Part shown: positions 1,310-63,221 of the stretch, in pieces
How the letters are laid out: the number at the start of each line of letters is the position of its first letter
Numbering within the stretch: the first letter of the stretch is position 1
Source of the DNA: an uncultured Lachnospiraceae bacterium
Lineage (GTDB): Bacteria; Bacillota; Clostridia; Christensenellales; UBA1242
Direction: 5' to 3'
Length of the DNA: 64,000 bases
NCBI GenBank assembly: GCA_964541815.1
Contig: CAZIRI010000003.1
Coordinates: forward strand, 156 to 64,155
Program-made: the position numbers and the translations under genes
The notes under the pieces: generated by a model
The model's input: the letters and a program-made list of their open reading frames with translations, nothing else
What the model was told of the DNA's origin: nothing
The model's database searches: none

Positions 1310-1339
1310 TTGACTTTTGAAATTGTTATATGATAAAAT
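1310..1339 (+). promoter_or_regulatory. Candidate sigma-A promoter of the SPFH/ESCRT-III/Vps4-like operon
   Basis: TTGACT (1310-1315), an 18-nt spacer, then TGaTAAAAT, an extended -10 (1331-1339). Confidence 0.4.
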
Positions 1340-1367
1340 ATTGTTGAGGTATTGGACATAATAGACT

Positions 1368-2201
1368 ATGGAAAAAAATGTTATCACATTTGTTGGCAAT
1401 AATGAGAAACTTTTCACAAAGATTTTGGTGGAAAATGTTTCATCGCCAAAATTGACTTTGATTGTTCCAGAAACACACAACGCAATCCTTGTCAAAGATG
1501 GGCAAATGCTCCAAACTTTGTCATCTGGGAAATATTTGATGTCATCTCTTATCGATTTGAAAACGGATGCTGACAGCAAAATTGAAATTCTGTTTATGTC
1601 AAAAACAGCAAAACTGAAATTGTTGTGGGGCACAGCACAAATGTTTATGGTCTATGACTCAAATCTTGAAGAAAATTACAAGGTTGGAATGAGCGGGGAT
1701 ATCGATGTTCAAATTGGCGACCCACGAAAGTGCTATCTGTATCTCATCGGGGCGGACAGCGATTTGACAAGTGAAAATTTGCAAATGCGAATTATGTCAA
1801 CTGTGGTGTCCGTTATTGAGGGTGAAGTTGTTGAATATATAAATGCAAACAGTGTCCCATTCAACAAAATTTCTGTTGTTCGAAATGCGATGACGAATTC
1901 GGCATTGACAAAAATAAGTCAAAAACTTATGAATGAATATGGAATAACTGTTTTCACTCTCAACATTGCGAATATTATTATCGATGAGCAAGATTATGCA
2001 AGACTGAACGCTTTGTCAAAAGGGCAAAATGCAAAGAAAGAAAAAACTTGCCCCGCTTGTGGCGCTGTGTTGAATGAAAATGCAAGTTTTTGCAATGAGT
2101 GTGGCAGTGAAGTTTTGGGAGATAAAATTTGTCCTGAATGTTCGACAGTAAATCCGCCAAAATCAAAGTTTTGTTCTGGCTGTGGGCATAAGTTTGCATG
2201 A
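1368..2201 (+). CDS. SPFH/Band-7 family protein with a C-terminal double zinc ribbon (COG4260 / B. subtilis YdjI-like)
   Basis: 277 aa. The N-terminal part, ...LIVPETHNAILVKDGQMLQTLSSGKYLM...LLWGT...IGDPRKCYLYLIG, fits the YdjI-type SPFH pattern. The C-terminus has two CxxC-x(n)-CxxC ribbons: CPACGAVLNENASFCNECG and CPECSTVNPPKSKFCSGCG. Confidence 0.7.
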   Translation: MEKNVITFVGNNEKLFTKILVENVSSPKLTLIVPETHNAILVKDGQMLQTLSSGKYLMSSLIDLKTDADSKIEILFMSKTAKLKLLWGTAQMFMVYDSNLEENYKVGMSGDIDVQIGDPRKCYLYLIGADSDLTSENLQMRIMSTVVSVIEGEVVEYINANSVPFNKISVVRNAMTNSALTKISQKLMNEYGITVFTLNIANIIIDEQDYARLNALSKGQNAKKEKTCPACGAVLNENASFCNECGSEVLGDKICPECSTVNPPKSKFCSGCGHKFA

Positions 2202-2215
2202 AAAGGGAGTGAAAA

Positions 2216-2623
2216 ATGATTGCGGTTTATATATTGATTGGTGTGGCACTTGTTGGGCTTGCGGTGTATTTTGTGATTAAGGAAACAAAATTCTCTTCAC
2301 ATGTTGAAAACATGGGTAGTCATGCTGTTGAAAAAAATAAAAAAGCAATAAATAATATGGTTGCAAATGTCGAGAGTATCATTGTTTATGCAAACGGAAA
2401 TGATGTGCTTTGTAGAAGACTGGTTGAAGTGAAAGACAATATAAGATTTTTCAATCCAACTTCCGATTCAAAGGTTGAACTTATTGACACAAAAATTGCA
2501 AATCGACTTGACGACTTGAAAATTATGGTTGCAAAGGACAACACACAAGAGACTTGTTTTCGTGTGCTGGAAGAAATTGAAGCATTTATCGTGCAGAGAA
2601 AAAAGGATGAGCAGAAATCATGA
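2216..2623 (+). CDS. Small N-terminally membrane-anchored helical protein, function unknown
   Basis: 135 aa. One N-terminal TM helix (IAVYILIGVALVGLAVYFVI) followed by a predicted helical soluble part. SD AGGGAG. Lies 14 nt after the SPFH gene, and its stop overlaps the next start (ATGA). Confidence 0.6.
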   Translation: MIAVYILIGVALVGLAVYFVIKETKFSSHVENMGSHAVEKNKKAINNMVANVESIIVYANGNDVLCRRLVEVKDNIRFFNPTSDSKVELIDTKIANRLDDLKIMVAKDNTQETCFRVLEEIEAFIVQRKKDEQKS

Positions 2624-2982
2624 ACAGAGAATATTATGCTTCACCAAATGTGACTGATGAAGTTGTTCGACAAAAAGTGGTTGATGAATTGAATCTTGGA
2701 TATTTCAATTTGAGTGACGGGCTTTTTGAACAGGCAAAACTAAACTTTTCGCTTGCACTTCAATTTGACAAAAAATGCTCCGAAGCGTATTGGGGCTTGG
2801 CGCTATGCAAATTGCAAATTCGAGATGAAAGCGTGTTGAATGAAAAACCTTCGACATACAAAAATATCACGGGGTTGAGTGAATACAAAAAAGCACTTGA
2901 CTATGCAACTGAAAAACAAAAAAAAGTCTACAAAAGATTGACTGAGCAGATTATGATTATACATTCTGTCGAATACATTTAG
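2620..2982 (+). CDS. TPR-like helical protein; stand-alone paralog of residues ~45-150 of the 1,273-aa protein at 5356
   Basis: 120 aa. GLFEQAKLNFSLALQFDKKCSEAYWGLALCKL...YKKALDYA aligns by eye with LKFDEAIEAFDKIINLYPMSFNAYYGRMQARN...YKLAVQYA in ORF 5356-9177. Confidence 0.6.
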   Translation: MNREYYASPNVTDEVVRQKVVDELNLGYFNLSDGLFEQAKLNFSLALQFDKKCSEAYWGLALCKLQIRDESVLNEKPSTYKNITGLSEYKKALDYATEKQKKVYKRLTEQIMIIHSVEYI

Positions 2983-2992
2983 GTGGTGAAAA

Positions 2993-3601
2993 ATGTGGTT
3001 ATTTGGAAGAAATAAATTCAAAAAATTAAATCGTGAAGATTTGGTGAATTCAATTTGCGAACTTGAAAGACAAGAACGCACTGTTGAGGCGGAAATCTTC
3101 CAGCATGTGAAAGAAATTGACGCCCTTATGGAAAAGGGGAAAAAAGAAGCAAGCAAGGATTTGCAGTTGTTGTATGCAAAGAAAATTGGGCATCTCAATG
3201 AGCAGAAAGACGCTTGTATGCAAAGGGGAATGTATCTTTTATACAACATTCGCCTTATGGAAAAATTGAAAGATGCTTACGACAGCAACACTTTCTTCAA
3301 AACTCAAACAAAAGTGCCGTTGAGTGAACTTTTGAAAGACCAAACAGGACTTGCAAAATTCTTAAATAAGGCACTGCAAACCCGAGTCAAAAGTGAAGAT
3401 GTGCTGACAAATGCGGATGAACTTTTCACGGAAGTAAAATCTGCTTATGACATAAGCAAACCTATTTATGGTGTCAACAAAGAAGAAGATGAAGTTCTGT
3501 CAATCTTTGAGAAAGACGCAAGCATGAAAGAAGAGCAAGAATTTGCACAGGCAAAAGCAAAATCAACAATAAAAAAGAAAAAAATGATGGAGGAAGAGTA
3601 A
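2993..3601 (+). CDS. ESCRT-III (Snf7/CHMP)-like coiled-coil protein, the divergent paralog (CHMP2/Vps2-like N-terminus)
   Basis: 202 aa. It starts MWLFGRNKFKK (from memory, CHMP2A starts MDLLFGRRK). A basic helical hairpin follows with ...ALMEKGKKEASKDLQLLYAKKIGHLNEQ..., then an acidic/charged tail. SD AGGTGG. Lies 1 nt upstream of the second paralog. Confidence 0.5.
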   Translation: MWLFGRNKFKKLNREDLVNSICELERQERTVEAEIFQHVKEIDALMEKGKKEASKDLQLLYAKKIGHLNEQKDACMQRGMYLLYNIRLMEKLKDAYDSNTFFKTQTKVPLSELLKDQTGLAKFLNKALQTRVKSEDVLTNADELFTEVKSAYDISKPIYGVNKEEDEVLSIFEKDASMKEEQEFAQAKAKSTIKKKKMMEEE

Positions 3602-3602
3602 A

Positions 3603-4199
3603 ATGGGACTTTTTAAGAGCAAACAAGAAAAAGAAATCGAAAAGAAGATGTTGATAAAAAGAACAATCAACTCAATGAACAAACAAATTGACAAGTTGGA
3701 AGACCAAAAACATGTGTTTATTGAAGCGGCAAAGACAGCAAAGGAAAAGGGCTTAGACTCTCAATTCAAACTTGCTTTGAGTGGCTACAAAATGACTGTT
3801 CAACAGCAAAAAAGAGCGCAAGAAATGAAGTTGAATTTTGAAATCACCGCTCAAATGAGAGATGTGACAATGATGACTTCCGACTTTTTGCATGGGCTTT
3901 CAGATGTGAGCAAGGAAATGGCAAAACTTGCCAATGCAAAAGAATTCTCAAAAATTCAAGCACAATTTGAGCAAGCAATGGTTGCTGTTGAAACTCAAAC
4001 TGACCAAATGGACAACTTTATGGATATGACACAAGAAACTTTCTACAATGCGGGAAAGAGTAAGTCAAACAAAATGTCCGATGAAGAATTTGAAAAGTTT
4101 ATCAACGAACAAATAAGTCAAGACGATGAATTGTCCGACAGCAAAATTGACCAAGAAATGGCTGATTTGAAGAAAAAAATTGATGCTGAATCAAACTAA
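3603..4199 (+). CDS. ESCRT-III (Snf7/CHMP)-like protein (CHMP3/CHMP1-like) with a C-terminal MIM1-like motif
   Basis: 198 aa. It starts MGLFKSKQEK (from memory, CHMP3 starts MGLFGKTQEK). The hairpin is AAKTAKEKGLDSQFKLALSGYKMTVQQQKRAQEMK. The core SKIQAQFEQAMVAVETQTDQMDNFMDMT resembles CHMP1B EKISALMDKFEHQFETLDVQTQQMEDTM. The acidic tail ends DDELSDSKIDQEMADLKKKIDAESN. Confidence 0.7.
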   Translation: MGLFKSKQEKEIEKKMLIKRTINSMNKQIDKLEDQKHVFIEAAKTAKEKGLDSQFKLALSGYKMTVQQQKRAQEMKLNFEITAQMRDVTMMTSDFLHGLSDVSKEMAKLANAKEFSKIQAQFEQAMVAVETQTDQMDNFMDMTQETFYNAGKSKSNKMSDEEFEKFINEQISQDDELSDSKIDQEMADLKKKIDAESN

Positions 4200-4212
4200 A
4201 AGGTGATAGAAA

Positions 4213-5352
4213 GTGAAAGAAGAAACCAAAATCGCAGTTTTGTCAGAAACTTTTGATTTGTATATGAAAAACGCTCGTGAAGCAAAGGCTCACGGGAAGA
4301 TTGCTCTTGCAAAGAAAAATTTTCTTCTTGCAAGCGAAACGATGATGAGAATGGCAAAACAAAGTGACGGGAAGTTGAAAGAAGTCCGAATGGACAGGGC
4401 AAGAGCATTGCTTGACATTGCAGAGGGATTGGCGAAAGAAGATTTGAAAAGTTCAAAGAAAAATAACGAGACAAAAGAAGAAGATGAGAGCGTCAAGAAA
4501 TGGCAAGCAGCCAAAATTCCTGATATAAAGTTCAGTGATGTTGCAGGTCTTGAAGAAGTCAAAAAAGCAATAACAATTCGAATGATAAATCCAATAAAAT
4601 ATCCCGACAAATACAAAATGTATGGGAAAAAGACTGGGGGCGGTGTTCTTTTGTATGGCCCACCAGGAACGGGAAAAACTATGATTGCGAAAGCGATTGC
4701 AAATGAAGTTGGGGCAAAGTTCTATGCTGTGAAAGGCTCTGACATTGTGAGCAAATGGGTTGGCGACAGCGAAAAGAATATCAACTCACTGTTTGAAGAG
4801 GCGAACAAGCAAGACAGAGCAATCATTTTTATTGATGAAATGGACAACTTGCTTGCAAAGCGTGGAAATGACACTCATAACGACAAGAGAGTGAATGAGT
4901 TTTTGCAACAAATTGACGGGTTCGCTGGAAGAAATCAAAATTTGCTTCTTTTGGGAGCAACAAACAGACCTTGGGATATTGACAGTGCAGCAATGAGGTC
5001 AGGGAGATTTTCTCAAAAAATTTATCTTGATTTGCCCGATGCACCCGCAAGAAAATTTATGATTGAGAAAAATTTGAAAGGTGTGCCACTTGCGGAAGGC
5101 TTTGATGTTGACAGAGTTGTTTCTCAAACAGAGCATTTCAGCGGAGCCGATATAGAAGAATTGTGTGACAGAGCAAAAGATGAGCCACTGCTCAAAGCGA
5201 TTGCGACTGACACGGTTGTCAATGTCACAAATGAGCATTTTGACAAGGTGCTTGAAGTCATGCCACCAAGCGTGACAGAGAGTGAAATGAAACTCTTTGA
5301 AAAATACAACAACGAAGTTGCAAGTTATATCAAAAAGAAAAAAGCGGAGTAA
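4213..5352 (+). CDS. Vps4/CdvC-like AAA+ ATPase (meiotic clade) with an N-terminal MIT-like helical domain
   Basis: 379 aa with a GTG start after AAGGTGA. The N-terminal ~75 aa are helical and MIT-like (KAHGKIALAKKNFLLASETMMRMAKQSDGKLKEVRMDRARALLDIAEGL). Walker A is GPPGTGKT (4657-4680). Pore loop 1 is SKWVGDSEK (Vps4 has SKW[LM]GESEK). Walker B is IIFIDEMD. Also present: GATNRPWDIDSA and a C-terminal PSVTESEMKLFEKY. Confidence 0.8.
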   Translation: MKEETKIAVLSETFDLYMKNAREAKAHGKIALAKKNFLLASETMMRMAKQSDGKLKEVRMDRARALLDIAEGLAKEDLKSSKKNNETKEEDESVKKWQAAKIPDIKFSDVAGLEEVKKAITIRMINPIKYPDKYKMYGKKTGGGVLLYGPPGTGKTMIAKAIANEVGAKFYAVKGSDIVSKWVGDSEKNINSLFEEANKQDRAIIFIDEMDNLLAKRGNDTHNDKRVNEFLQQIDGFAGRNQNLLLLGATNRPWDIDSAAMRSGRFSQKIYLDLPDAPARKFMIEKNLKGVPLAEGFDVDRVVSQTEHFSGADIEELCDRAKDEPLLKAIATDTVVNVTNEHFDKVLEVMPPSVTESEMKLFEKYNNEVASYIKKKKAE

Positions 5353-5355
5353 AAA

Positions 5356-8300
5356 TTGAGAGAGCGTGTTTGTAAAAATTGTGGAGGAAGACGGTATGTT
5401 GTGGTTGGGCAGAACATGGTTAAATGCCAGTTTTGCGGAACTCTCTATGTCGACGAACACGCCTCAAAAGAAGAAGAATATTTGACTGTCGGTGCTTATG
5501 AGAAACTTCGAGAATTGAAATTTGACGAGGCGATTGAAGCATTTGACAAAATTATAAATCTCTATCCAATGTCATTCAATGCCTATTATGGAAGAATGCA
5601 AGCAAGAAACAAAATGGTTTTCTATCCAAACAAAAGCGGAAATGGAAGAAAGGCGAGATTTTTTGGAAAGATTATTCCATCAATTTTGGAAGATGAAGAC
5701 TATAAACTTGCGGTGCAATATGCTCCTGGTGATATCGCAAAAACTTATGAAGAGAATGCGAAAAAAATTGAAAAAGCATACACAGTTTTGTCGCAAGGGA
5801 TTCCCGAAGACAAAACAGATGTTTTTGTTTGTGCATTAAACTACACAAAGGACTCTCCAAACAGCAAAATCGACAGTGCAGTTGCGAAATTGAGAGAAGA
5901 AAATTTGTCAGTCTTTTTCTTGCAAGAATTGCAAGGGAAACTTCTTGAATGCAAGATATTCACGGCACTTAAACATGCAAAAACTTTTGTTTTGTTTGCA
6001 AATTCAAAAGTCAAGGTGACCGACCCTGAATATGTGCATTTGTTTGACAGATACAACTATTTCACACAGCAAAAAGAAAAAAGTCAAACAAGTTTTGTTG
6101 TTGTGATTGACGACAGGGTTTATGCTGATAAGTCAAATTTTCCTGACGACTTTTTGACGAATAAAACAATTGTAGATTTCAATTCAGTGACATTTGAGGG
6201 TGATTTTGTTTCGGTTGTAAAGACGGAAATTGCAAACACTCTTGAATTGTCAAAAAAATTGCAAACTGTTGATGTTGAGACAATTAAGGCGGAAAAGAAG
6301 CAAATTGTTGATGTTGAAACAGTCAACACGGTGAAACTTGGAAACTACAAAATTGACAATGTTGCACCAAATTATGAGAACAAAATAAAATGGATTTCAT
6401 TGGCGTTGCAAAATGGAGATTTTGTTTCCGCACAAGAAGCGATTGATGAAGAATTGGAAAAAAATCCAAACAATGCCGAAGTTTTGTTTGCTCAATTTAT
6501 GTGTGACAGTCGCAGTAGAACGGCTGGGGAATTTTTTTCAAGTATTGACCATTTTGCTGACAAGGAGAGATTGCAAAATATTTTGCAACTTGCATCTAAA
6601 AATTTTGCGGAAATGATTGTTGACAACTTGGAAAGATTGATTCAAAACATTGATGATGTGGGATGCTACAATGAATATGCGCTCTTTGTTGCACAGTATG
6701 AATCACCAAATCGAGCGGAGTTTGTTTCAAAACTTGCGGACAAGGCTGTTGAAACTTTGGATGCAGGATTGATTGAAAAGACGGAAAAATGTTTCCATAA
6801 AGATGAAATTGACAAGTTTTTGGATTTTTACAATCGATTGGCGGACAAAACGGGTGATGATTCTTATCACCAAAAGGTTTTGGCTCTTGACGTAGGAAAT
6901 ATTGAAAGCAATTTGGCGATGATTTTGGCAAAAATGAAGACTGTTGATGAAAAATTGACTTATCGAAATGCCGAAGAAATTGAAAGCGTTCTTCAATATT
7001 TAAGCGAAGAAGAAAGGTCTCAAATTATTATTCCAGTTTTGGGAGAAATTTTGTCTGTCGCCTTTTTTGACATTCGAAAAACTGAGGAGCAACTTGACTT
7101 TTATTTGTCCTACATTTCAGAAACAAGTCAGTTGGTGTCCGTGTTGTCAACGGTTGGACAAAAGTTGAATGAAATGGGTTTTTACACGCAGGCGGAAAGA
7201 TACTTGGCAAATGCGATTGAAAAAGACAAGCAAAATGCAAAACTTTATTGGCTTCTCATTCAAAACAAAATTCATTGTTCGAATGAAAATGAGATGATAT
7301 CTTCTGGTGTGAAAATTTCAAAAATGCCAGAGTGGGAAAGTGTTCTTGCCTATGCGGATGACAAAGAGTCTGAAAAATATGCGCTTGTTGTGAGCAAAGC
7401 AAACAGCAACACAAATTTTCCAAAACCTCAAAGATTTGAAACTTTGGACAAAATTATGTTGAAAGAAAAATTGGGTTTGTTTTTGGAGAGAAATTCAAAA
7501 ATTTTGCTTGAAGCACAAAAAGTTCACGGAAATATAAAGGGGGTGAATTACTACAAATCGCAAATCAGACCTTTTGAAGTTTTTTTTGAACAAATTGCAA
7601 AAGCAAATGATTTTGACGCATATATCAAAATTGTCAACAAGATATATGAAAGACTTCGATTGATGCATTTGACACTTGAAGCGTCAATCAGTGCATTGCA
7701 AATTGATGAAAAGTCAAACGGCTTAAAGGCTGTGAGAATGGCATCAAGAAGTTATTCTTTGACGGAAGAAGAACAAAAGAAAGCGGAAGAATTGCAAAAA
7801 AGCAAGATTGCAACACGAAAGTTTTTGTATGGATTTTTGGAAATTGCACCTGTCGCACTCACACTTCTACTGCTCATTTTGTCACTTGCCTCACCAAAAC
7901 TTGTGTTTGACTATTTCAATCAAACATTTTTGCTTGTTTTGAGTGTATATAGTGGAGTTGTTGCTGTTGGAAATTTGCTTTTTTATATATTTAAGAAGAA
8001 AAACTTGAATCCAAAGTGGAAAATCGCCGAAAAGTTTTTGATTACTCTTACATTTGTGAATTTGATTTTGTTCGTTTGTTCATTTTTCATTTTTCCATCA
8101 AAAATCACTGTGTCAAATGAAAAAGATTTGAAGAGATATGTTTCAAATGCGCAATATTCAAACATTGTTCTTGACAGTGATATCGAACTCTCAAACGAAT
8201 GGACGGCTCGCAAATTTTATGGAATTTTTGACGGAAATGGACACACAATTTCAAATATCAATATCAAATCTGGTGAAGATATAGCATTTTTTGAAGAAAA

Positions 8301-9177
8301 TAGCGGGACAATCAAATCTTTGACGCTTGTTTATGTGGAAAAGTCGTATAAAAATGTGGACAACTTTGCTGGGGTCGCTGTCACAAATTATGGAATTATC
8401 ACGAATTGTAAAATTTCTTGTGGTGGAACAATTTCAATTTCAACAAACGAAAATGCAATCATTGGCGGAATTTGTTCAGTCATGAAAAAAGGCTCAATCA
8501 CTTCTTGTGAGGTGAACGATTTTAATCTCAACATTTCATCAAATGGGAATGCTGTTGTTGGCGGACTTGTCGGAAAAACTGACATTGAAGACGATTTGAC
8601 GGTGGTAAAAAACAACTATGACTCGACTATGACCCTCGTGCTTGACGATGCAAAGGCTGTTTATGCTGGTGGAATTGTTGGGCAGAGTGACAGAAGCAAA
8701 CTTGACAACTTTAATTTGTCAAGAAATCATGCGGGAGTTTGGATTTCTTTGAAAGGCACAGCAAGCAAAATTTGTGTTGGCGGGCTTGTTGGCGAGGGTG
8801 GCTGTGAAAGTGAAAACAACTACACCACTGGAACGATTAAGTCGGAGGTTGTCGTTGACTCTGCAACAAAAATGTATGTTGGCGGGCTTTATGGCACTGC
8901 CAACACAACATCTCTTGATTTGTATGCAATAAAGACAAGTTATTCATCTGTCACAGTTGATTTGAAATCGTCTGACAGCATTGTTTATGGGGCATTGATG
9001 GGCAGTCTTAAAGATATGCAAGTGACAAACTGTTTCTCAACTGCAGACAGTGAAATTTACAACAACAACGGCAGTGGAGAAACTCTTGGGAATGCAAACA
9101 AATTCAATGCTTTTGATGGGGCGATATTCAGCAAATTTGATGAAAAAATTTGGAATAGCAACAAAACTTTGAAGTGA
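5356..9177 (+). CDS. Multidomain membrane protein: cytosolic zinc ribbon, TPR-like repeats (possibly a TIR-like segment), 3 TM helices, extracellular GLUG-repeat beta-helix domain
   Basis: 1,273 aa with a TTG start 3 nt after the ATPase stop. Zinc ribbon: CKNCGG...CQFCG. There are three copies of a TPR-like motif ending AYYGRM, VLFAQFMC or LYWLLIQNK. TM helices lie at ~7815-8100. The C-terminal part reads FYGIFDGNGHTISNINI followed by repeated (V/A/I)GG(L/I)(V/C/Y)G motifs, typical of GLUG domains. Confidence 0.7.
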   Translation: MRERVCKNCGGRRYVVVGQNMVKCQFCGTLYVDEHASKEEEYLTVGAYEKLRELKFDEAIEAFDKIINLYPMSFNAYYGRMQARNKMVFYPNKSGNGRKARFFGKIIPSILEDEDYKLAVQYAPGDIAKTYEENAKKIEKAYTVLSQGIPEDKTDVFVCALNYTKDSPNSKIDSAVAKLREENLSVFFLQELQGKLLECKIFTALKHAKTFVLFANSKVKVTDPEYVHLFDRYNYFTQQKEKSQTSFVVVIDDRVYADKSNFPDDFLTNKTIVDFNSVTFEGDFVSVVKTEIANTLELSKKLQTVDVETIKAEKKQIVDVETVNTVKLGNYKIDNVAPNYENKIKWISLALQNGDFVSAQEAIDEELEKNPNNAEVLFAQFMCDSRSRTAGEFFSSIDHFADKERLQNILQLASKNFAEMIVDNLERLIQNIDDVGCYNEYALFVAQYESPNRAEFVSKLADKAVETLDAGLIEKTEKCFHKDEIDKFLDFYNRLADKTGDDSYHQKVLALDVGNIESNLAMILAKMKTVDEKLTYRNAEEIESVLQYLSEEERSQIIIPVLGEILSVAFFDIRKTEEQLDFYLSYISETSQLVSVLSTVGQKLNEMGFYTQAERYLANAIEKDKQNAKLYWLLIQNKIHCSNENEMISSGVKISKMPEWESVLAYADDKESEKYALVVSKANSNTNFPKPQRFETLDKIMLKEKLGLFLERNSKILLEAQKVHGNIKGVNYYKSQIRPFEVFFEQIAKANDFDAYIKIVNKIYERLRLMHLTLEASISALQIDEKSNGLKAVRMASRSYSLTEEEQKKAEELQKSKIATRKFLYGFLEIAPVALTLLLLILSLASPKLVFDYFNQTFLLVLSVYSGVVAVGNLLFYIFKKKNLNPKWKIAEKFLITLTFVNLILFVCSFFIFPSKITVSNEKDLKRYVSNAQYSNIVLDSDIELSNEWTARKFYGIFDGNGHTISNINIKSGEDIAFFEENSGTIKSLTLVYVEKSYKNVDNFAGVAVTNYGIITNCKISCGGTISISTNENAIIGGICSVMKKGSITSCEVNDFNLNISSNGNAVVGGLVGKTDIEDDLTVVKNNYDSTMTLVLDDAKAVYAGGIVGQSDRSKLDNFNLSRNHAGVWISLKGTASKICVGGLVGEGGCESENNYTTGTIKSEVVVDSATKMYVGGLYGTANTTSLDLYAIKTSYSSVTVDLKSSDSIVYGALMGSLKDMQVTNCFSTADSEIYNNNGSGETLGNANKFNAFDGAIFSKFDEKIWNSNKTLK

Positions 9178-9215: not shown

Positions 9216-9257
9216 GAAAAGGAATTTTGCATTGTGTTGCAAATTTTCCTTTTTTAA
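9216..9257 (+). terminator. Intrinsic terminator ending the 7-gene operon
   Basis: gaaaaggaattttgca pairs with tgcaaattttcctttt around the loop ttgtgt, forming an imperfect stem with one mismatch/bulge. A T-run follows. Confidence 0.5.
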
Positions 9258-9329
9258 TTAAATTCATATAAAAAACGACAATAATTTGTGATTTTGTCGC
9301 ATATAAATGATTTTATTATGTTTTACTTG

Positions 9330-9380
9330 TTGACAATATGTGAAATGATGTGATATTATGATATATGTTGACAAGTCAAC
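9330..9380 (+). promoter_or_regulatory. Promoter of the ABC exporter operon with an adjacent perfect palindrome (candidate operator)
   Basis: TTGACA (9330-9335), then TGaTATTAT, an extended -10 (9351-9359). The palindrome GTTGAC-AA-GTCAAC lies at 9367-9380, around the expected transcription start. Confidence 0.5.
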
Positions 9381-16089: not shown

Positions 16090-16138
16090 ATCTTTGATAT
16101 TTATGAAATTATTTTTCATGATAAATAGGAGATTTTGT

Positions 16139-19100
16139 ATGAAAAAAAGAAATTTTGCCTTTATGTCAATTCTCGCCTTTTTGTTTGGCGGTTTTTTGAC
16201 GGCTTGTGATTTCAAAGACGCAAAAGCAAATTTTCAACAAGAGGAGATTGTTGTGTCAGTTGGCGACAGTGTCAATTTGTATGACTATCTCACTTTTGAA
16301 AATGTGGAAAAGGGCGATATTTCTTTCAAGTGCGAAAATTCGGATATTGTGGCAAGCAGTGCTGGTGAGTTGGTTGCTCTGAGTTCTGGCTCATCGCAAG
16401 TCTATGCGACTTACAAAAACAACCTCTTGTCATCAATCAATGTTTTTGTTCGAGGCTTTTTTGATGCGCCAGCAACAGTGAATTATGTTGATGGTCAATT
16501 GATTTGGTCGCCAGTTTATGCCGAGGATAAAAATGGGGACACTGAATATGCTGGTGGATACATAATTTCTGGGACAAGAACTGCCCCTGACGGAGAAGTT
16601 TCTGAAATAAATGAATTTATTTCGTCAAGCAAGAACAGTATCAATTTCACGGATGCAGGGCATTATGTGATTTCGATTCAAACTCTTGGTGGGATTGGTT
16701 ATTTTGACACAACGAAAGAAGAAAATGCAAAAATCTACACTTTTGATTGTGGTTATATGAAAAAGTTGAAAGCAAGCGACATTGTTTGGGAAAGTGACGG
16801 AAAGTTGTCATGGACGGCTGTTGCAGATGCAAAATACAAGGTCAAAGTGAATGGTGTTGAACTTGGCAACTTGCAAACTGAAACTTCTTACAATTTGTCA
16901 GAGACAATTACAAACGGAACTGCGGATGAATACAACATTTCCGTTGTTGTGTATGATGCAAATGGAAATTTGAATGGCAATCGCTATGAATGTGAAAGTG
17001 AACAAATTGTTGTGAGTAAGTTGAGTTCGCCAACGATTTTATGCGAAAATGGAAAACTTAAAGTTGTTTCACAGCAAGAAGTTGATGAATTTGATTTCAC
17101 ATTCACATCATTGAGCGGGACTGGTGGAATTATTCAAATTAATGAAAAATGCACTGGCAGGGAATACATTGATGCATTTGACACTCTGTCCGCTGGGGAA
17201 TATTTTTTGACTGTGCAAGTCAAAAAGAATGGGCTTTATTTCAGTGGTGACAGTGTGGCTACATTGCAAAAAATTGTCAAACTTTCAAAGGTGACAATTG
17301 AAGGCACGGGAGCAAATGTTGAAAACGGGACTGCTGTAAATGTTTCATTCTCGGCGGGAGATAATGCGTCGTCAAAAATGCAAGTTTCAATCAATGGAAA
17401 CGCAAGCGAAATGGCGACAACTGCCAATTCAATTGATTTTGGTGGCACTGGGACTTATGTTGTGAAAGCGATGCAAATTCCTGACGACACAAACAATGCT
17501 TATGCATTAAATTCCGTTGAAAGTGATGAAGTGACTTTTACCGTGCTTTCTTGGGGTGAAGATAAGCAAATCACACATGCATATGTCGAGGTTGGTGAGG
17601 ACCAAAAAGTTGATGTGTCAAAATTGTCATTTGACAGTGTTGATGGGGCAAGCAAATACACTTTGTTTGTGAAGTCTGCGAGTGTCTGGGAAAAAGTTGG
17701 GGATTGCGAACAAAACGCTTACACATTCAATGGCAAAATTGAAAATTTGTATGATAAAAAGGTTATAGAAAATAAACTCACTTTCAAGGTTGTTGCAAGC
17801 GGAGATGACAAGTCGACCGTTTCAGTGTCAAAAGAGAAAGTCGTTGATGTTTTGCCAAAGGCGGAAGAAGTTGTTAGAAGTGACAACACCTCAAAAACTT
17901 ATCAATGGAGTGAGGTTGCGAATGCGGGCGGATATTTGTTGACAATTTATCGCACAATGAACAGTGATTTGTATGGTGAAACTAGTCCTAATTACGAAAA
18001 TGTTGGTTGGACAGAAAGCGTAAAAACTGTGACCACAAACTCGGTGACTTTGGAAGACTTTGGATATTATCACATTGAAATTCAATCAATTTCAAATGAT
18101 GAAAATTTATATATTTCTTCGCTTGATGTTTTTAAGGGCAAGTTCTACATTTGCGAAAAATTGAGCATATCAAGTGATGATTTTAAGTTTGGATATAACA
18201 GCGAATATAACAAAGAAACTCTTGCAACGGGCGGAATTTGTCATGGATATTTCATTCAAATCAAAAACAGCACGGCAGAAAATATTGTTAAGTATGCGGT
18301 GTCATTGAGTGACGGAGAAAAAACTGAAAGTGGCGAAATAGTAAAAAGCAGTGGAGATTACACTATATACAAATTTGCCAGTGATTTTTCTGGGAGCGGA
18401 AAGACATACACAATTTCAATTGTTGAAAAAAGTGACAATGTCTATGTGAAGACTTCTGACACGGAAGTTGTGAGCAATAAAACTTACTACACGAAGACGA
18501 CGGACAACAACAAAGATGTGTATACTATTGTGACAAGTCCAACAGTTGAGAACATTGGAAATTATTATGAAAAATACACAAAATGTGATGCAACAATTTA
18601 TCTTGATAGCGATGCGGTCACAAAAACAGTTGAGAGATTGAAAAATGTTGAAATAAGCGATATCGTGGTTGGTCAATTGAATTTGTCAGTTTCTTCAAGT
18701 TTGGCAAAGGAAAGCATTTCTCAAAGTCTTTCGCTCAAATCCATTGAAAACGCTTCAACATCGATAAATTGTGGGGAAGATTTTGTGACAAATGGCAGTT
18801 ATGACATTGCAAATATTTCTTCGGGCAATAATGTCACATTCCAATACATAGGTTCTAGGATAAAATCTAATATTTACGAAGTTCAAGACAGCACGATTTA
18901 TTTGAGTGGAGAAAGTCTTGCGGTCGCATTCAAACGAATTGTGACTCCAACAAGTTTGAAATACGAAAAAGGGGAATTGCACTTTACGCTCACTAGTAGC
19001 ACGGGTGTAAATGCGACATATTACAGGGTTTTGATTTCCTTTGTTGATGAAAACCAAAGGGTGTCACGCATTGATGTTTGTGTCCCTCCTGAAAGTGGGG

Positions 19101-22100
19101 AAGTGACAGCGGAATGCGCTGGAACAAAGTATAGCCTAGGGCAGTTGAATTGCTACAACTTTGGCGATAATATTGTCAAAATTAACATCACAACAATTTT
19201 GGAAAAAATTCAAGAAAATGAAGTGTTGGGCAGTTTATACACTCAAGCAAAGGAAGTCGGATTCTCTGCAAGTTGTTTCATAAGTGAGGGGGGTGAAACA
19301 AACAATGGAATCGTTTACAACATTTCTTCACAATTTGCAACCGCCGAAGATAATTCGATTGTGCTAAAAGTTGAAAAATTGGTTGCGCCAAAACTTTCAT
19401 ACACATATGCAAACGGGACTTTGACTTTCAATTGGAATGAAGTTTCTGCAAAGGGTGACACAACATACAGACTTTACACAAATGGGGATGTTTCAGGCTC
19501 ATGCACCGTGACAAAACTTGTAAAGCAGTTTGGAAGCGACATCAGCGATTTGAAGCCAGCAACACAATATATTTTCTATGTGACGGCGATAAATGATTTG
19601 TATCTTGAATCAAGTCGTTCAAACACTTTGACGATATACAAATTGTCGCAAATTGATGCTATTTCTTTGAGTGACGGAAAGATTGTTTATCAACTTAAAG
19701 AAAAGGATTATGCAAGCGGTGTTCAATGCACAACTGATGCAGGAACCCCAACTGTCACAACTGAATCATGCACAATTGTTGGCAAAGGAACTTACAAACT
19801 TTCAGTGAAAGGGCAAGAGAAGAATGTTGAGTATGAGTATGTCAAAACTTCTGACACAAGTGTTGATGAAACAAAAACTTACTACACATTGACAAATGGT
19901 GAATATATCGCTGTGACAAGTCCAGCAGTTGAGAACATTGAAAATTATTATGAAAAATATATAGAAAGTGATGCGACAATTTATCTTGACAGTGATGTGA
20001 CGATTTGGACTGTTGAAGAGATGTCAGAACTTGCACCAACTGACAACAAAGTATCCTTTGCATCAAATTCGATTTCTTGGCAAGAGTTTGCAAGTGGGAA
20101 AACTTTGAATGTTGAATATATTCTTTATTTCAAAGATATAAATGAGAAAATTGTCTCATACAACAACGGGAAAGGTGCAAGTGTCGATTTGACAACATCA
20201 ATTGTAAGAGAAAATTTTGAGAGTTTAGCTTCTGGGGATGTGGAAATTTTTGTGGTTGCAAAACTCAACAACTATTCTGTTTCCAACGGGTCAACAGTGC
20301 AAACAATTTATTTTGCAAATGGTGTGAAATTGCCAAATGGTGAAACGGCAAACAATGTTTATTTATACACAAGCACAACCGTTCGTAAATTGGAAGCACC
20401 TACTGTGACTTCGGTTCAATTTGACGGTGAAGATGCCACGCCAAACATTGTTGTCACATTCACAGGAAATTTCACGGGCGACACAGGCTTTGATATCTAT
20501 TTTGGCGGAGTGCAGATAGATGATGAGACAAAAGATGAAGACGGTGCAACACTTTTTGAAGAGATTGAGATAGAATCAGTTTCAGGCACTGAAAATTCAT
20601 TCTCATTCACCGTGCCATATGCAAGATACAACAGCCTGATTGCAGGTGGAGAAACAAAAATTTTGAAAATTTCTGCGGACAGTGCATCGCAATTCCCATC
20701 ATCAAGTGGGAGTGTTGCAATTTCAAGAGCGGAAAGTGTGAAAAATGTCAAATTTGTCGAAAGCAATGGAAAATTGACAAAAAATGTCGAAATTGAATTA
20801 ACTTCTTCACAATTCACTGCGGGTGGGATTGCTTTGGAAATCACTGCGACACCAGTTTCAGGGAATGCAACAACAGAAGTTGTCAACATTGATTGTTCAC
20901 AAATTGTGGATAACTCTTTGAAATTAAATTATGACTTGTCAACAATTTTGAACAAGGAAGTTTATAAAGATTGTCAAAGTATCCAGTTGAATGCAAGATT
21001 GAAATGTTTTGCAGATGATGCAAACAAGACTTATATTTTGAGTTCGACATATTCATTGATGGATGTTGTCACATACAAAATCATTCCTTGTGTGGATAAT
21101 AGCACTGACTTGAAAAAGACTTCCAGTGGATTTACGATTGACAAGACATATAATGACGCTGACATCTCGTCAAAAGAAATTCAATACATTTTGACAGTCA
21201 CAAAATATAATGACGGCAAAACGGAAACAGAAAGACACAATGAATTCACGATAACTAAAAATGACAATGAAAAATATGAATTTGTCTTCCCTCGTGGTGC
21301 GGAATGGGAAAGTGGAACATACACTTTTGAAATTCAAACAGTATATGTGAATGATGCTTCAGAAAGTGCATCAACAAACAATCTCTTGGATTCGGCAAAA
21401 AGCACTTTCACATGGGAGTTGACAAGGCTTGATATTATTGACGCAAATTCAATCAGTTGCACAAGAGATGCAGACAATCTTTCGCTTGTGACAATGTCAT
21501 GGAATGTTGTTAATGGTGCAAAAGAATATGTTGTTGAGGTTGTGGATGAAAAGGGAGAAACTTTGTGCAGTCACACAATAACAGGGACAACGACTAGGGC
21601 AAGTTGTTCAATGCAAGATATGATTCAAAATGTGGAATATATATCAAGCGACATTCAAGCGACTGTTTCCATTTATGCAAAAAGTGATTTGAGTGAAGGA
21701 ATTGCAGTAAGTTTCCCAATAACAATCAGAGCAAACACACTGATAAGTGAACCAGCAAGTGTTGATGAAAATGGTGTTTTGTGTTTGTCTGTGCAAAAAG
21801 GGATGACATATTTATATAGAATTGTCAATTCGGACGGAGATGATGTCAAAAAGTGGACAAAAGTGACCGCCGAAAGCGACACAGTGAAAATTGACACAAA
21901 TGCACTTACAAAAGGTGTAAATTGGCATGTTGAAATTGCTGTCTATGGAAATGTTGACGGAAATGCTGTCAATCCAACAACAGCGAATCCAGCGATTGTT
22001 GCAGACTCAAAGATTCTTGTGGCAACAAATACATTCATCCCAACTGAAAAAATTTGTTCAATAGCAAGAAACGAACAGGAAGGGAATAAAAATATCATGG

Positions 22101-25100
22101 CAGTGGAAGCACCACAAGAATTCACAAACATTCTTGTTGGATTGAGTGAAGATGCGGTCATGACTGGCGAAGTTGCATCAATAAAAGTGAATTCCATTGG
22201 CTCATCAAAAACCGATGGCTATGCAATTTATGGACTTGCTTTGGGAGATGTGATTTCCGCATTCAAAACGGCGAATATTGATGTTCCAACTTCAAATGAC
22301 CCACAAACAATGTGGCTTTGGATTTACAAAGAATCGACTGAAAATGCAAGATATATTGTTTCGCCAAGTTTTGAGTCACAATTTATATATATGGAAAAGA
22401 CAAGCATAACATATCAAGGCACAGTGAAACTTGGAGATGAGAACACTGAAAAATTTGCGGACACCTATGTCAAGTTTGCTGGCGATAGCACTGCTCTTGG
22501 AATTTATGTGAGAATAACAACCTATGAGAAAGAGAACAATCCAATCACTGTTTTGAAATTCTGTGATAGTAAGAGCATGCTTGAAACAAGCAAAGATGTT
22601 TTTGGTGATGCCAATAATTTTGCAATCAATTTGACAGCGTTGTTTGAAAAAAAAGCTGGCGAGGGTGAAGTTTCTTTGAGAGATGTTGAAGGGGATCTTA
22701 CGATTGAATATGCAAAATTGACCTATTCGACAAGCAACAAGTTGTTTGGGCTTAATGAATGGCTTGGAACGGACGAAAATGGAAAAGAATTTGGATTTTA
22801 TAGACTTTCAAAACCAGGGAATGTCAAACTCTCGGGCGGAGATATTTCTTGGACTGACGGCAATCCAAAATCTTCAAGATATTATGTGTATTTTGCAACC
22901 CAATTGAATGAAGATCAAGACGATTTGGAAAGTGCTAGTCAATATTCATATGTATACACACAAAAAACGAGTTATTCAGCATCTGAATATGCTGGGATTG
23001 AACAAAAATATCATATTGCTGTTCAATCGATAAACAGTGACCCATTTGTGTTGTCATCTTCAAGAGTGTTTATTTCAAAGGATGACGCCATCACTGAAAT
23101 TTACAGAAATCAAGTGAGTGGCGGGTTGGAACTTGTTGGCGGAGCATTGAGATTCAAACTTGCAAACACTGAATTTGCGACAAATTTAGTAGCGTTGGCG
23201 GGTAAGGCTGAGAATGCTTCCGATTCAGATATTGAGGATTTTATGAATGAGACTTATCAAGCCCCTTTCACATTCAAGATTTCTGATTTGTTTGGCGACA
23301 ACATAAGTGTTCGATTGAAATTCACATCTCTTGATGTTGAAACGAACGGGAAATATCAAACATTTGATGTCAAAGCAAAATACTTGCTTCAAAATTTATT
23401 TGATGTGAATTCTGGTTTGGAAGGGAAGTTAAAAACCCTTGCAGACAAAACAAGCAAACTCAATTCGATAAGAGACTTCTTCTCAAGATCAACGGGCGGA
23501 ATTGCAACTCAACAACTTATTTGTGACGAAATTTTCAACTCATTGTCAATTGGGAATTATTCAATTCAATATCAAATTTTGGGTGGCACAAACACATTAA
23601 ATTCATATTGGTATGATTTCTGCAATATAGAAAATGGCAATAGAAACATCATTTATATAAACTCTCAACCTGACTATACAATAAGATGCGAAACTGATGC
23701 GAATGGCAACAATAAATACAGTGTGACATTCAAGAAAACTGATGTTGTGAGTGGTTATGAAAATGTTTACACACTCGTTGAAAATCCAGTCAGCGAAAAG
23801 ATAAAGGCATATTTTGAAAAAACATATGTTCAAACTTCTGACACGGGGATTGTGGACGGAAAAACTTACTACACAAAGACAACGGACAACGACAAAGATG
23901 TGTATACCGTTGTGGAAAGTCCAACAGTTGGCAATATTTCTACTTATTATGAAGAGGAATACACACTCACGACCGACACGGAGATTTCAAGCGAGAAAGA
24001 ATATTATGAATTGACTTCATGCACTCCAATAATGTCACCTGCAACAAGTTATGTGATGAAGTTGTATACATCAAGCGACAGTTATTACACATTTGATTTC
24101 AACGGAATTGATGTTTCTGGAAATGCGACTATGAAAATTGGCGCACAGACAATATATTCGAAAGATGTTGTGAACGAAGGAACTGTCACGGTTTATGATG
24201 CTGACAAAGACGGAAACACAACAGATAAGAGCGGAAATGCAATTGTCGGTGGTGGATATTACAAATTCTATTTGAATTGTGTTGATGATTCGCTTTTGGG
24301 AGTGTTTGGAGATTTGATAGAGAAGTATTCATACAAAATGCAAATTTATGCAGTTGGAACCGATTTCTCATTGTCTTCAAAATCACAATGCTTCAATGTC
24401 ACGTTCCTAGATTTCACAGGACTCTCACTTGAAAATGGTGTTTTGAGTTGGACTAGTGTTGGAACGACAAAAGTTTGGTGCAATTCTAGTTCCACAGATA
24501 AAGGAGGAACATCATCTTATATTGGAACGCTCACTGCAAAAGACGCAATAAATGGAAGACAAAATTTGCCAGTGAGCAAAATGGGTGCTGGCAAATATGA
24601 CAGCATTCAATTCCAAGAAATTGGTGGTGTTTATTCAGAATCTGTGGATGTTGATAGTGTTATTTATCAACTTGACAATGTCTACAAATATTCAGCACCA
24701 ACAGTCTCAACTGAATTGGGCTTGATAAAAATTGACAGCACTGCAAACGATATAGACAATATCTTCTCTCAATCTGGTGTTGATATGAGAATTATCACGA
24801 CTATACGAGAGAAAACAACCTCAAGTGAAGGTTCAGGCGAGGAAAAGGAAGGAGGTTCGGCGGAATTAATTGGAAATCTTGGAAAGATGAGGTCAAATGA
24901 TTCGATTATGTATAACGATGTTTCAACATCTTCTAGCAGACTTATCACACAATCAAAAACTTATGAAGTGGGTGGTTCTTCTGAATATGAAAGGACTGAA
25001 ATGACCGCAACTGAATTTAATGTCGCTACAGTTGGGTCAACGGTTGAGAAATTCGCAAGTGATACGAGTGGGAATTTGTTGATGAAATTGACTCCTATGA

Positions 25101-62142: not shown

Positions 62143-62649
62143 TCACATAATTTTGCAAAGTAGGCATGCAATTATCGTGCCAACAAATGAGCAGAAAAGA
62201 GCGACAGGAATTGCATAAAGCAATTTCTTTATTTTTGTTTGAGAGATGTAGATTGTTGCGACATAAAAAATCGTTTCACTGCAACCCATTATCACACTTG
62301 CACAACGGGATATATAACTGTCCGCACCATATTGAGTGAAAATGTCTTGCAAAATCGCATAACTTCCACTGCCCGTGAATGGGCGGAGAAAAACAAGTTC
62401 GCATAGTTCTGGCGGGATTCCGCAAAAGGTGAAAATTGGAGAAAGTAAGGTTGAAACAAAAGTTGTTATTCCGCTTGCTCGCAAAAGAGCAACAGCAATC
62501 ATTATTGATGCGATATATGGGAAAATGTCAACAACAAGTTGTATTGCTCCCTTTGCACCTTTGACAAATGTGTTGTATGCATTCACTTTTTTGATTGATG
62601 TGTATATAAATAGAAACAAAAACAATATTGGAAGAATGTAGACACTCAT
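62143..62649 (-). CDS. spmB: Spore maturation protein B
   Basis: I chose the ATG at 62649 (MSVYILPILFLFLFIYT...), which overlaps the spmA stop (ATGA). Polytopic nucleoside-recognition-type membrane protein. Confidence 0.7.
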   Translation of the reverse strand: MSVYILPILFLFLFIYTSIKKVNAYNTFVKGAKGAIQLVVDIFPYIASIMIAVALLRASGITTFVSTLLSPIFTFCGIPPELCELVFLRPFTGSGSYAILQDIFTQYGADSYISRCASVIMGCSETIFYVATIYISQTKIKKLLYAIPVALFCSFVGTIIACLLCKIM

Positions 62650-63221
62650 TTTTTCTTTCTCGCTTTTGATTTGAGAGTGTCTATCAAGTGAACAAGGAAA
62701 ATTCCTAGCAGTGTTGTGCATAGGGTGGAAATAAGGGTTGGAAAGATTATGTCGGCGGGAGATAATGAGCCTGCACTTGCACGCAAACCTATCACAGTTG
62801 TTGGCAAAAGTTGAATGGAGGTTGCATTTATCACAATGAGCATTATAATCGCAAAATTTGCCTTTCCGCTTTTGTCATCAAGCGATTGCACCGCTTTGAT
62901 TCCCATTGGAGTTGAAGCGTTGCCCAGTCCCAAAATGTTTGCGGAGAGATTCATTGCGATGTATTTTTGCGATTCACGATTTTCAACTTTGAAAATTTTT
63001 TGAATAAGCGGACGCAAAAGTCTTGAAAGTTTTTCACTCAATCCGCTTGCCTCAACAAGTTCCATAATCCCAAGCCACACAGCATAAATTGCACAAAGTT
63101 CGATGCAAAGTTTGACGGTGTCAGTGGATGCATCAATCATATGCGACAGCATGGCACTGGGAGAAGTGAAAAGCAAAACGAAAATGCTTGAAATCATCAT
63201 AATCAGCCAAAAAATATTCAT
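62646..63221 (-). CDS. spmA: Spore maturation protein A
   Basis: 191 aa. MNIFWLIMMISSIFVLLF...GLGNASTPMGIKAVQSL is typical of SpmA. Paired with spmB. Confidence 0.75.
   Translation of the reverse strand: MNIFWLIMMISSIFVLLFTSPSAMLSHMIDASTDTVKLCIELCAIYAVWLGIMELVEASGLSEKLSRLLRPLIQKIFKVENRESQKYIAMNLSANILGLGNASTPMGIKAVQSLDDKSGKANFAIIMLIVINATSIQLLPTTVIGLRASAGSLSPADIIFPTLISTLCTTLLGIFLVHLIDTLKSKARKKK

Follow-up and report, generated by a model that had tools for sequence, protein, structure and literature searches.

A candidate ESCRT-III-type membrane-remodeling operon with a Vps4-like ATPase and an SPFH protein in uncultured gut Clostridia

[quoted passage not shown] A 2025 review states that Vps4-like ATPases appear absent in bacteria, and PspA and Vipp1, the ESCRT-III relatives of bacteria, are generally considered to function without such an ATPase. 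Here, we analyzed a 64,000-nucleotide (nt) stretch of DNA (the window) from an uncultured Lachnospiraceae bacterium (GTDB lineage Bacillota; Clostridia; Christensenellales; UBA1242; assembly GCA_964541815.1, contig CAZIRI010000003.1, positions 156 to 64,155), which carries a candidate operon of seven genes, named g1 to g7 in order, at positions 1368-9177. We favor, with moderate confidence, the view that this operon encodes an ATP-driven membrane-remodeling machine of the ESCRT-III type, archaeal in its affinity and integrated into a bacterial SPFH platform. Our literature search found no prior description of such a Clostridia ESCRT-III/AAA/SPFH module.

Several described systems offer points of comparison. 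In archaea, the 'Main' clade of ESCRT loci, present in Thermococcales, Methanococcales and others, combines Vps4 and ESCRT-III with a Ser/Thr kinase and phosphatase (STK/STP), and among the genes of the Meth_adaptin loci is one for a protein with SPFH, coiled-coil and zinc-ribbon parts (Makarova et al. 2024, PMC10936438). In Bacillus subtilis, YdjI depends on the membrane proteins YdjG/H for its arrival at the membrane, after which it recruits PspA (Scholz et al. 2021, PMC8581546). In addition, Vps4-like ATPases have been transferred from archaea to Cyanobacteria, Bacteroidetes, Verrucomicrobia, Nitrospirae as well as Planctomycetes, with snf7 displaced by the gene of a protein with TPRs and six transmembrane (TM) helices (Ravi et al. 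2024, PMC11237479). The same study describes sporadic bacterial Snf7-clade proteins with AAA+ ATPases, as well as associations of the PspA/Snf7 superfamily with Band-7 proteins. Like the transferred Vps4 operons, the locus in the window places a Vps4-like AAA+ ATPase beside a large TPR and multi-TM protein, since g7 consists of TPRs followed by three TM helices. Unlike them, it retains Snf7-type genes beside the ATPase gene and belongs to the phylum Bacillota, and its SPFH, g2, GLUG and TIR-like parts are undescribed there. Its likeness to the Meth_adaptin loci is at the level of their published description, and the operon is without adaptin-appendage, GOLD or ProX proteins.

The seven genes lie on the forward strand and are separated by 14, -4 (an ATGA overlap of g2 and g3), 10, 1, 13 and 3 nt. 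A promoter scan revealed a sigma-A-type site at 1310-1339 (+), composed of TTGACT, an 18-nt spacer and TAAAAT, which scored 10/12 and has in addition the TG of an extended -10. When we aligned the DNA upstream of g1 from 16 orthologous loci, both the -35 and the TGnTATAAT extended -10 were conserved, whereas the flanking DNA diverges, and the g1 ATG lined up throughout. Downstream of g7, RNA folding revealed an AT-rich hairpin at 9216-9254 (-14.9 kcal/mol, z -2.29) followed by UUUUUU, forming an intrinsic-terminator-like element at 9216-9260 (+); the terminator scan, which called nothing 3' of g7, missed this hairpin. The next promoter-like site (9330-9359) stands ahead of ABC transporter genes, and the 30 internal promoter-like sites are no excess over a shuffle expectation of 22 +/- 4.4. 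Because the junctions are tight and are served by one conserved promoter and one terminator, g1-g7 is predicted to be a single operon. An earlier note on this DNA, made from the letters alone, had proposed exactly this unit, and its coordinates, junctions, promoter and terminator were all borne out.

The operon promoter is predicted to be of the housekeeping sigma-A type and not of a stress or sporulation type. As this housekeeping promoter is conserved, it suggests that the operon would be expressed constitutively rather than under sigma-W-like or sporulation-specific control. We saw no extracytoplasmic function (ECF) or sigma-W-type motif and no regulator gene in the operon, and Rfam returned no riboswitch or leader RNA upstream, its sole match being the upstream tRNA-Ala. 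Shine-Dalgarno-like purine runs precede g2 to g7, most clearly g2, g5 and g7, and g1 alone has no well-placed one. The leader of the window (1340-1367) is about 20-25 nt shorter than that of most relatives and is without their AGGGG/GGAG Shine-Dalgarno sequence before the g1 ATG; g1 may be translated here from a short leader with a weak Shine-Dalgarno sequence.

The gene order is shared by relatives. A g6-seeded scan found 36 species-representative genomes, and all 31 complete loci of the close clade have the order g1-g7. When the g4 family served as the query of a second scan, relatives turned up in 128 genomes, and 80 of these were retained for locus comparison. Here the order 1-2-3-4-5-6-7 was observed in 53 of 54 close-clade loci, the exception being truncated at a contig end, and the 26 distant loci read 1-2-4-5-(7)-6, with g7-like genes changing place. 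The identical order in the relatives' loci argues that the arrangement is more than chance. Conservation of gene order, which the earlier note had named as a check on its proposal, was thus found in the close clade, and the core g1-g2-g4-g5-g6 travels together across distant Bacillota although the flanks differ. Within the close clade, g4, g5 and g6 are 73-81% identical and g7 is 36-44% identical, and the ABC transporters that flank the operon reach 52-72%. All carriers are metagenome-assembled genomes (MAGs) of uncultured gut Clostridia, for example Candidatus Caccovivens, Coproplasma and Christensenellaceae. Archaeal contamination of these MAGs was rejected as an explanation, as bacterial flanks (tRNA-Ala, bPH, ABC transporters) accompany the operon on more than 80 independent contigs.

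The strongest link to ESCRT-III comes from g5 (3603-4199, +; 198 amino acids, aa). A homolog search with this protein gave 437 clusters at 90% identity, and a profile search gave 356 representatives at 50% identity. The family profile, built from 97 diverse members, matched human CHMP2A (7zcg_B; E 3.9e-6, positions 8-150) and, after it, CHMP1B, CHMP3, Vps24 and CdvB, and 17 of these 97 members individually matched Pfam Snf7 (PF03357; best 1.4e-9). PspA_IM30 (PF04012) had no match in any operon protein, and the PDB profile search of g5 ranked CHMP proteins first. The AlphaFold2 (AF2) model of g5 has five helices (7-48, 52-109, 112-155, 160-172 and 179-197) and would fit the ESCRT-III pattern of a long alpha1-alpha2 hairpin with shorter helices after it, but at a predicted local distance difference test score (pLDDT) of 62; in Foldseek, its top matches were almost all from the ESCRT-III superfamily (best E 0.075), with Vipp1 among the weak ones. 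In divergent members, a conserved core leads through a variable acidic linker to a conserved C-terminal helix, [IL]-[DE]-x-[EQ]-[LIM]-x-x-[LI]-[KR]-K-K, whose spacing fits the MIM1 consensus. This helix is a MIM1-like, putative MIT-interacting motif. At family level, g5 can be firmly assigned as a predicted Snf7-family ESCRT-III protein.

The comparison extends to the eukaryotic ESCRT-III/VPS4 system. The family profile of g5 and CHMP2A align almost from end to end, the N-terminus is of the MGLFKSK type (MGLFKSKQEK in the window), the MIM1-like motif is amphipathic and the ATPase has a KW-x-G pore loop (SKWVG in g6). Unlike the eukaryotic system, the operon has no ESCRT-0/I/II and no ubiquitin link; identity is about 15%, and the second region of homology (SRH) of the ATPase is Cdc48-like (R-x-G-R-F, in common with p97).

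We also observed the g5 domain in other settings. Some proteins from other Bacillota MAGs have a relative of this domain fused N-terminally to RuvB-like AAA+ and winged-helix modules, sometimes with a NERD nuclease (P0174, P0186, P0187, P0196, P0248 and P0268), or to FtsK/SpoIIIE ATPases (P0179, P0180, P0182 and P0193). At locus L040 (8001-9668), a g5-domain fusion sits within a different multi-gene cluster, together with a second Snf7-like gene, a SpoVK-type AAA gene, a trypsin-like protease, Sel1 proteins and a zinc-ribbon protein. We have not seen these Snf7-like/RuvB or FtsK fusion architectures described in the literature.

The gene directly upstream, g4 (2993-3601, +; 202 aa), probably encodes a second, divergent ESCRT-III-like subunit. 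This assignment is based on a confident hairpin, CdvB2 fold matches, a g5-like N-terminus and a chain of archaeal homology. The AF2 model, for which the alignment was built from homolog-search matches, forms a helical hairpin (14-51/55-97) at pLDDT 81-89, and its top Foldseek matches are archaeal CdvB2 filaments (E 0.18), then CHMP2A/3 (E about 0.2). The N-terminus, MWLFGRNKFKK, resembles that of g5. By sequence, g4 matches a 201-aa protein of an archaeal ESCRT locus (E 3.9e-7), and some members of this archaeal g4-like family are named 'SNF7 family protein' by NCBI. The hhalign comparison of the bacterial g4 family with this partly SNF7-named family gave a probability of 76% (E 2.2e-5), and that of the partly SNF7-named family with the g5/Snf7 family gave 76% again (E 2.3e-5, 153 columns). 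Single-sequence matches of g4 and g5 to the PP7 coat protein and to an E. coli 'YdjI aldolase' were rejected as noise, the latter being unrelated to B. subtilis YdjI. The earlier note had read both genes as Snf7-type ESCRT-III genes; this stands for g5 at family level and is probable for g4.

g6 (4213-5352, +; 379 aa) is predicted to be the ATPase of the system. It is laid out as an N-terminal helical domain, a single AAA domain and a C-terminal helix, with one classic-clade AAA+ domain in Pfam (AAA 144.7 bits, AAA_lid_3 32.5 bits), and it aligns with positions 6-366 of the 370 of the NCBIfam CdvC model (NF041006; 203 bits). It shares PWD[IL]D with archaeal Vps4, and the two are in register from residue 13 in the case of the Thermococcus protein; the CdvC model is likewise in register from this region (residues about 9-13). 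Vps4_C (PF09336) scored 17.7 bits in g6, short of its 21.3-bit cutoff, and four distant orthologs reached 22.6-24.4 bits; the feature has no discriminating value, since the C-terminus of p97 D2 can be aligned with the same region of g6. In the close-clade loci examined, g4 and g5 lie directly upstream of g6.

The g4-g5-g6 triad has its nearest relatives in archaeal ESCRT loci, which argues for an archaeal-type ESCRT module rather than a mere Psp analog. One such locus (L042) is on a 49-kb plasmid of Thermococcus peptonophilus (NZ_CP014751.1, record 17914-25817). It encodes two proteins of about 200 aa with ESCRT-III-type N-termini, of which the second is the g4 homolog and the first matched nothing, together with a Ser/Thr kinase, Vps4 (Vps4_C 35.8 bits), a PP2C and a g5-like protein. 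The homologs of g4, g5 and g6 were recovered at E 3.9e-7, 1.2e-17 and 2.6e-45, respectively, and the archaeal g5 homolog matches Snf7 at E 4e-4. In its predicted gene content, this locus matches a complete 'Main'-type ESCRT locus as defined by Makarova et al. 2024 (PMC10936438). Because it is plasmid-borne, it is a plausible vehicle for the horizontal spread of ESCRT modules.

As in the archaeal 'Main' loci, the ESCRT-III genes of the bacterial operon lie directly upstream of the ATPase gene. The archaeal kinase/phosphatase pair is absent from the operon of the window but is mirrored in a more distant Bacillota MAG (L038), where an FHA-domain Ser/Thr kinase and a PP2C are encoded just upstream of the SPFH gene (2089-4429); the PP2C of this locus matches that of the Thermococcus locus at E 1.3e-26. 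The L038 genes that follow encode a Band_7_1 protein, a 97-aa protein, a 203-aa protein, a g5-like protein (37% identical), a g6-like protein and a trypsin-like protease. As the 203-aa protein, which occupies the g4 position, has no detectable similarity to the g4 or g5 families, homology in the g4 slot is unproven beyond the Christensenellales-like clades. The bacterial system further differs from the archaeal one in its host and in adding the SPFH/zinc-ribbon protein, g2, g3 and g7, and its ATPase is at least as close to p97 as to archaeal Vps4. No Pfam match corresponding to arCOG09748 (winged helix) or arCOG08177 was present among the operon proteins, in a comparison in which arCOGs were not searched directly.

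The platform would be provided by g1 (1368-2201, +; 277 aa). Pfam revealed PF13421 Band_7_1 at 48.4 bits (cutoff 24) and a C-terminal double zinc ribbon (DZR 40.6 bits, with DZR and Zn_Ribbon_1 both above cutoff); the protein has four CxxC motifs and no TM helix. We compared it with Bacillus YdjI, whose sequence was retrieved via a primer printed in Scholz et al. (PMC8581546). Both proteins have the same layout of SPFH domain, linker and CPNC...CPNC; the SPFH domains share 20% identity (141 aa, E 5e-4), and the zinc ribbons give a match of their own. Thus, g1 is a predicted soluble, YdjI-type (COG4260) SPFH and zinc-ribbon protein, as the earlier note had claimed, and given this low identity it would be a distant homolog of YdjI and not its ortholog.

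g2 (2216-2623, +; 135 aa) encodes a small protein with an N-terminal TM helix (residues 2-20), in keeping with the small membrane protein of the earlier note, and a cytoplasmic helical domain. In distant clades the protein is conserved, with an 'MGLFFRKKK' N-terminus in place of the TM helix; no relatives were found in Pfam, PDB or ESCRT-III profiles. Residues 91-102 (window 2486-2521) form an invariant motif, D-x-K-I-x-x-[KR]-L-x-D-L-K, which resembles the MIM1 consensus and the C-terminal motif of g5 (g5 residues 179-191, window 4137-4175). The two motifs were paired by hhalign, below significance, and we hypothesize that g2 and g5 may share a docking site for the ATPase. The overlapping g3 (2620-2982, +; 120 aa) encodes a TPR-like helical protein that is a paralog of g7 residues 608-675 (BLASTP E 3e-6), that is, a free-standing copy of one g7 module. 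It is present in the close clade and was not reliably detected in distant clades.

The last gene, g7 (5356-9177, +; 1273 aa), encodes a membrane protein with three TM helices between residues 827 and 912; positive-inside charges place residues 1-826 inside and 913-1273 outside. The cytoplasmic part carries CxxC motifs at residues 6 and 24, which form the N-terminal zinc ribbon, and TPR matches in Pfam. For the zinc-ribbon/TPR proteins of the earlier note, this bears out the claim for g7; g3 is TPR-like and has no zinc ribbon. The extracytoplasmic part (913-1273) is a GLUG/beta-helix-like domain. Among 27 g7 orthologs, GLUG was matched in nine (best 1.4e-7), Pectate_lyase_5 in two and TIR_2 in three, all of them distant (best 2.4e-6). 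The g7 of the window has no TIR or GLUG match in Pfam, and both assignments derive from evidence at the level of its family. When residues about 140-300 were searched as a profile, plant TIR structures were matched (E 0.0095-0.09), then SARM1, over the first half of the fold only. The TIR-like segment of the earlier note thus receives weak support from the family profile. As the candidate catalytic Glu of the distant clade's W-V-K-D-E-W (W-x-x-x-E) aligns with Leu in the window clade, the segment (about 150-290), if it is a TIR domain, would probably be a non-catalytic scaffold.

Our model suggests that g1 oligomerizes at the membrane as a platform, to which it would be recruited by g2 and/or g7, much as YdjI is via YdjG/YdjH. 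The g4 and g5 proteins would bind the membrane through their hydrophobic-basic N-termini and then co-polymerize. A g6 hexamer would dock by its N-terminal helical domain on the MIM1-like helix of g5, and possibly on the similar motif of g2, and would thread subunits through its KW-V-G pore loop, so that turnover of the polymer leads to repair or scission. In this scheme, g7 would couple the external GLUG domain to a cytoplasmic TPR/TIR-like scaffold (about 820 aa), by which the machine would be positioned or gated. Repair, vesicle release, division and sporulation are all conceivable as the cellular event that the operon serves.

Some of our results weigh against this model. Taken alone, neither g5 nor g4 of the window gives a Snf7 match: Pfam, NCBIfam, PADLOC and PDB searches with the two single sequences returned noise only, and g4 has no Pfam or PDB sequence match. 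The AF2 models of the two proteins are of low confidence (pLDDT 62 for g5 and 65 for g4), and no Foldseek match reached E 0.001. Direct hhalign comparison of the g4 and g5 families gave a probability of 11%, although the two are colinear over 161 columns. For g6, the CdvC score of 203 bits misses the equivalog cutoff of 650 widely. Its N-terminal domain is weak as a MIT domain: the N-terminus has no Pfam match in the window, MIT in an ortholog (L030) scored 16.5 bits (E 0.0094; cutoff 30), and the N-terminal profile alone fails to detect archaeal Vps4. The best PDB match of that profile was 2mpk, a MIT domain (E 0.2). Against p97 D2 the g6 core scored 199 bits at 34% identity, as compared with 146 bits at 31% for Thermococcus Vps4, and for the C-terminal half no Vps4 chain was among the top 60 PDB matches. 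Finally, polymerization of g4/g5 and their recycling by g6 are predicted activities, and the carriers are known from uncultured MAGs alone. As the core is nearer to Cdc48/p97 D2 than to archaeal Vps4, 'Vps4-like' is to be read as an architectural statement and not as family membership. g6 is, from its sequence, Vps4-like in architecture and gene context, and the earlier note's Vps4-like ATPase holds in these respects and not for the ATPase core.

A more specific version of this proposal, which we put forward only tentatively, is that the operon is a genuine bacterial ESCRT system. The two-subunit Snf7-type polymer, the Vps4-like ATPase and the SPFH platform would then form a constitutive core system of a gut Christensenellales-like Clostridia lineage, acting in a scission event such as the final division step, vesicle release or sporulation membrane fission, and its kinship with archaeal ESCRT would stem from an ancient inter-domain transfer.

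Rather unlikely, in our view, is a role in membrane-protein quality control, with an SPFH cage and an AAA+ unfoldase comparable to HflK/C-FtsH or stomatin-NfeD, g4 and g5 as adaptors or regulators and not a polymer, and a serine protease as seen in relatives. SPFH-protease pairing is an established theme. The g6 core fits Cdc48 and FtsH about as well as it fits CdvC (NCBIfam scores of 221, 201 and 203 bits, with PAN about equal) and is nearest to p97 D2. In distant clades, moreover, a trypsin-like serine protease is usually encoded 3' of the ATPase gene, directly so in most loci and in L038, and a BrxL-like (Lon-related) ATPase gene recurs (examples of such extra genes are L030 11535-12434 and 16838-18250, and L038 10408-11433). 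However, neither the operon of the window nor any of the 53 complete close-clade operons contains a protease, the BrxL-like gene is likewise not found in the window clade, and g6 itself has no protease domain and no TM helix. The Snf7-family membership of g5, with its MIM-like tail, and the match of the g4-g5-g6 triad to archaeal ESCRT loci also argue against this role.

We consider it unlikely that the operon is an anti-phage or conflict system. In such a system, infection would be sensed by the TIR-like/TPR membrane protein, and the ESCRT-III-like proteins and the AAA ATPase, joined in relatives by proteases, would carry out abortive infection or disrupt the membrane. The TIR_2 matches of distant g7-like proteins, which reach the Pfam cutoff, the TIR-like profile signal, the variable placement of g7 and the BrxL-like and trypsin-like genes that recur beside the core in distant clades would all be in keeping with defense, as would the fusions of g5-domain relatives to RuvB-like AAA and NERD nuclease and to FtsK ATPases. 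In addition, g6 scored 139 bits against the PADLOC IetA model. Nevertheless, such a score is expected of any classic AAA protein, and NCBIfam IteA gave 120 against a cutoff of 510. PADLOC matched only g6 (IetA, TRIP13 and DolB AAA models), the other six proteins giving nothing or noise. The operon occupies a fixed chromosomal position and is intact in each complete close-clade locus that the scans seeded with its own g6 or g4 returned, the core proteins are the most conserved of the region and the housekeeping-type promoter is itself conserved. No copies were found in phage records or viral contigs, and the plasmid search gave a single match, which is archaeal, with no copy on a bacterial mobile element. 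Finally, the g7 of the window has no TIR match in Pfam, and Leu replaces its candidate catalytic Glu.

Equally improbable is a Psp-like, inducible system for envelope-stress repair, that is, a functional copy of pspA-ydjGHI with PspA swapped for a Snf7-type protein and induced by membrane damage, a reading that overlaps with the machine we favor and differs from it mainly in regulation and role. Both operons combine an ESCRT-III-superfamily protein and partners anchored in the membrane with a soluble SPFH protein of PF13421 that bears a C-terminal zinc ribbon. g1 has both the architecture and the Pfam family of YdjI, which links PspA to the membrane via membrane partners; associations of the PspA/Snf7 superfamily with Band-7 proteins are known (PMC11237479), and g7 starts with a zinc ribbon, as YdjG does (primer-derived M-I-I-S-Y-K-C-P-N-C). 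The main objection is the promoter, which is sigma-A-like with an extended -10 and not of the sigma-W type, in an operon with no ECF/sigma-W motif or regulator gene. Furthermore, the operon has Snf7-type proteins, probably two subunits, in place of a PspA_IM30 domain, no TPM-domain equivalent of YdjH was recognized in it and g1 shares just 20% identity with YdjI. An AAA+ disassemblase is present, which together with the archaeal homologs points to an ESCRT-type and not a Psp-type cycle. The analogy to pspA-ydjGHI with PspA replaced, drawn in the earlier note, holds as far as the YdjI-type g1 and the missing PspA_IM30 are concerned, but the triad is most closely related to archaeal ESCRT loci.

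If the operon does encode an ESCRT-III-type remodeling machine, the Snf7-type plus Vps4-like module, present in at least 128 species-level gut Clostridia genomes, would be a bacterial example of the full polymer-plus-disassemblase cycle. It would also give a natural link between SPFH proteins and ESCRT-III, as hinted at in B. subtilis and in methanogen loci, and would add a new data point for ESCRT evolution, through either inter-domain transfer or an early Cdc48-derived ATPase. Since the proteins are small and soluble, whether g4/g5 polymerize on membranes and whether g6 recycles them are questions accessible in vitro.

The DNA around the operon has features of its own. A gene for a bacterial PH-domain protein (bPH_2; 425-811, -) lies divergently upstream and is a conserved neighbor in the close clade, at a variable distance. 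Between it and the operon is a 70-aa Cys/Gly-rich open reading frame (ORF; MNFFGGNNCGDSVQNECGGGMDCC...; 932-1144, -), with a strong terminator-like hairpin of 13 bp directly 3' of it on the same strand (930-902, -); this ORF may be a real gene for a small Cys-rich peptide. Near the other end of the window, two adjacent, overlapping Gate-domain genes (62143-63221, -) are consistent with spmA/spmB, in agreement with the spmAB genes of the earlier note, and nothing ties the operon to sporulation despite their presence. The window also contains two giant ORFs, at 16094-28096 (+; 4000 aa) and 38068-56178 (+; 6036 aa). Pfam found nothing in the N-terminal 1200 aa of either, and the C-terminal part of the larger one has a divergent InlB B-repeat match (Flg_new_2, E 8e-10). 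They are probably giant surface proteins, possibly of relevance to the external GLUG domain of g7.

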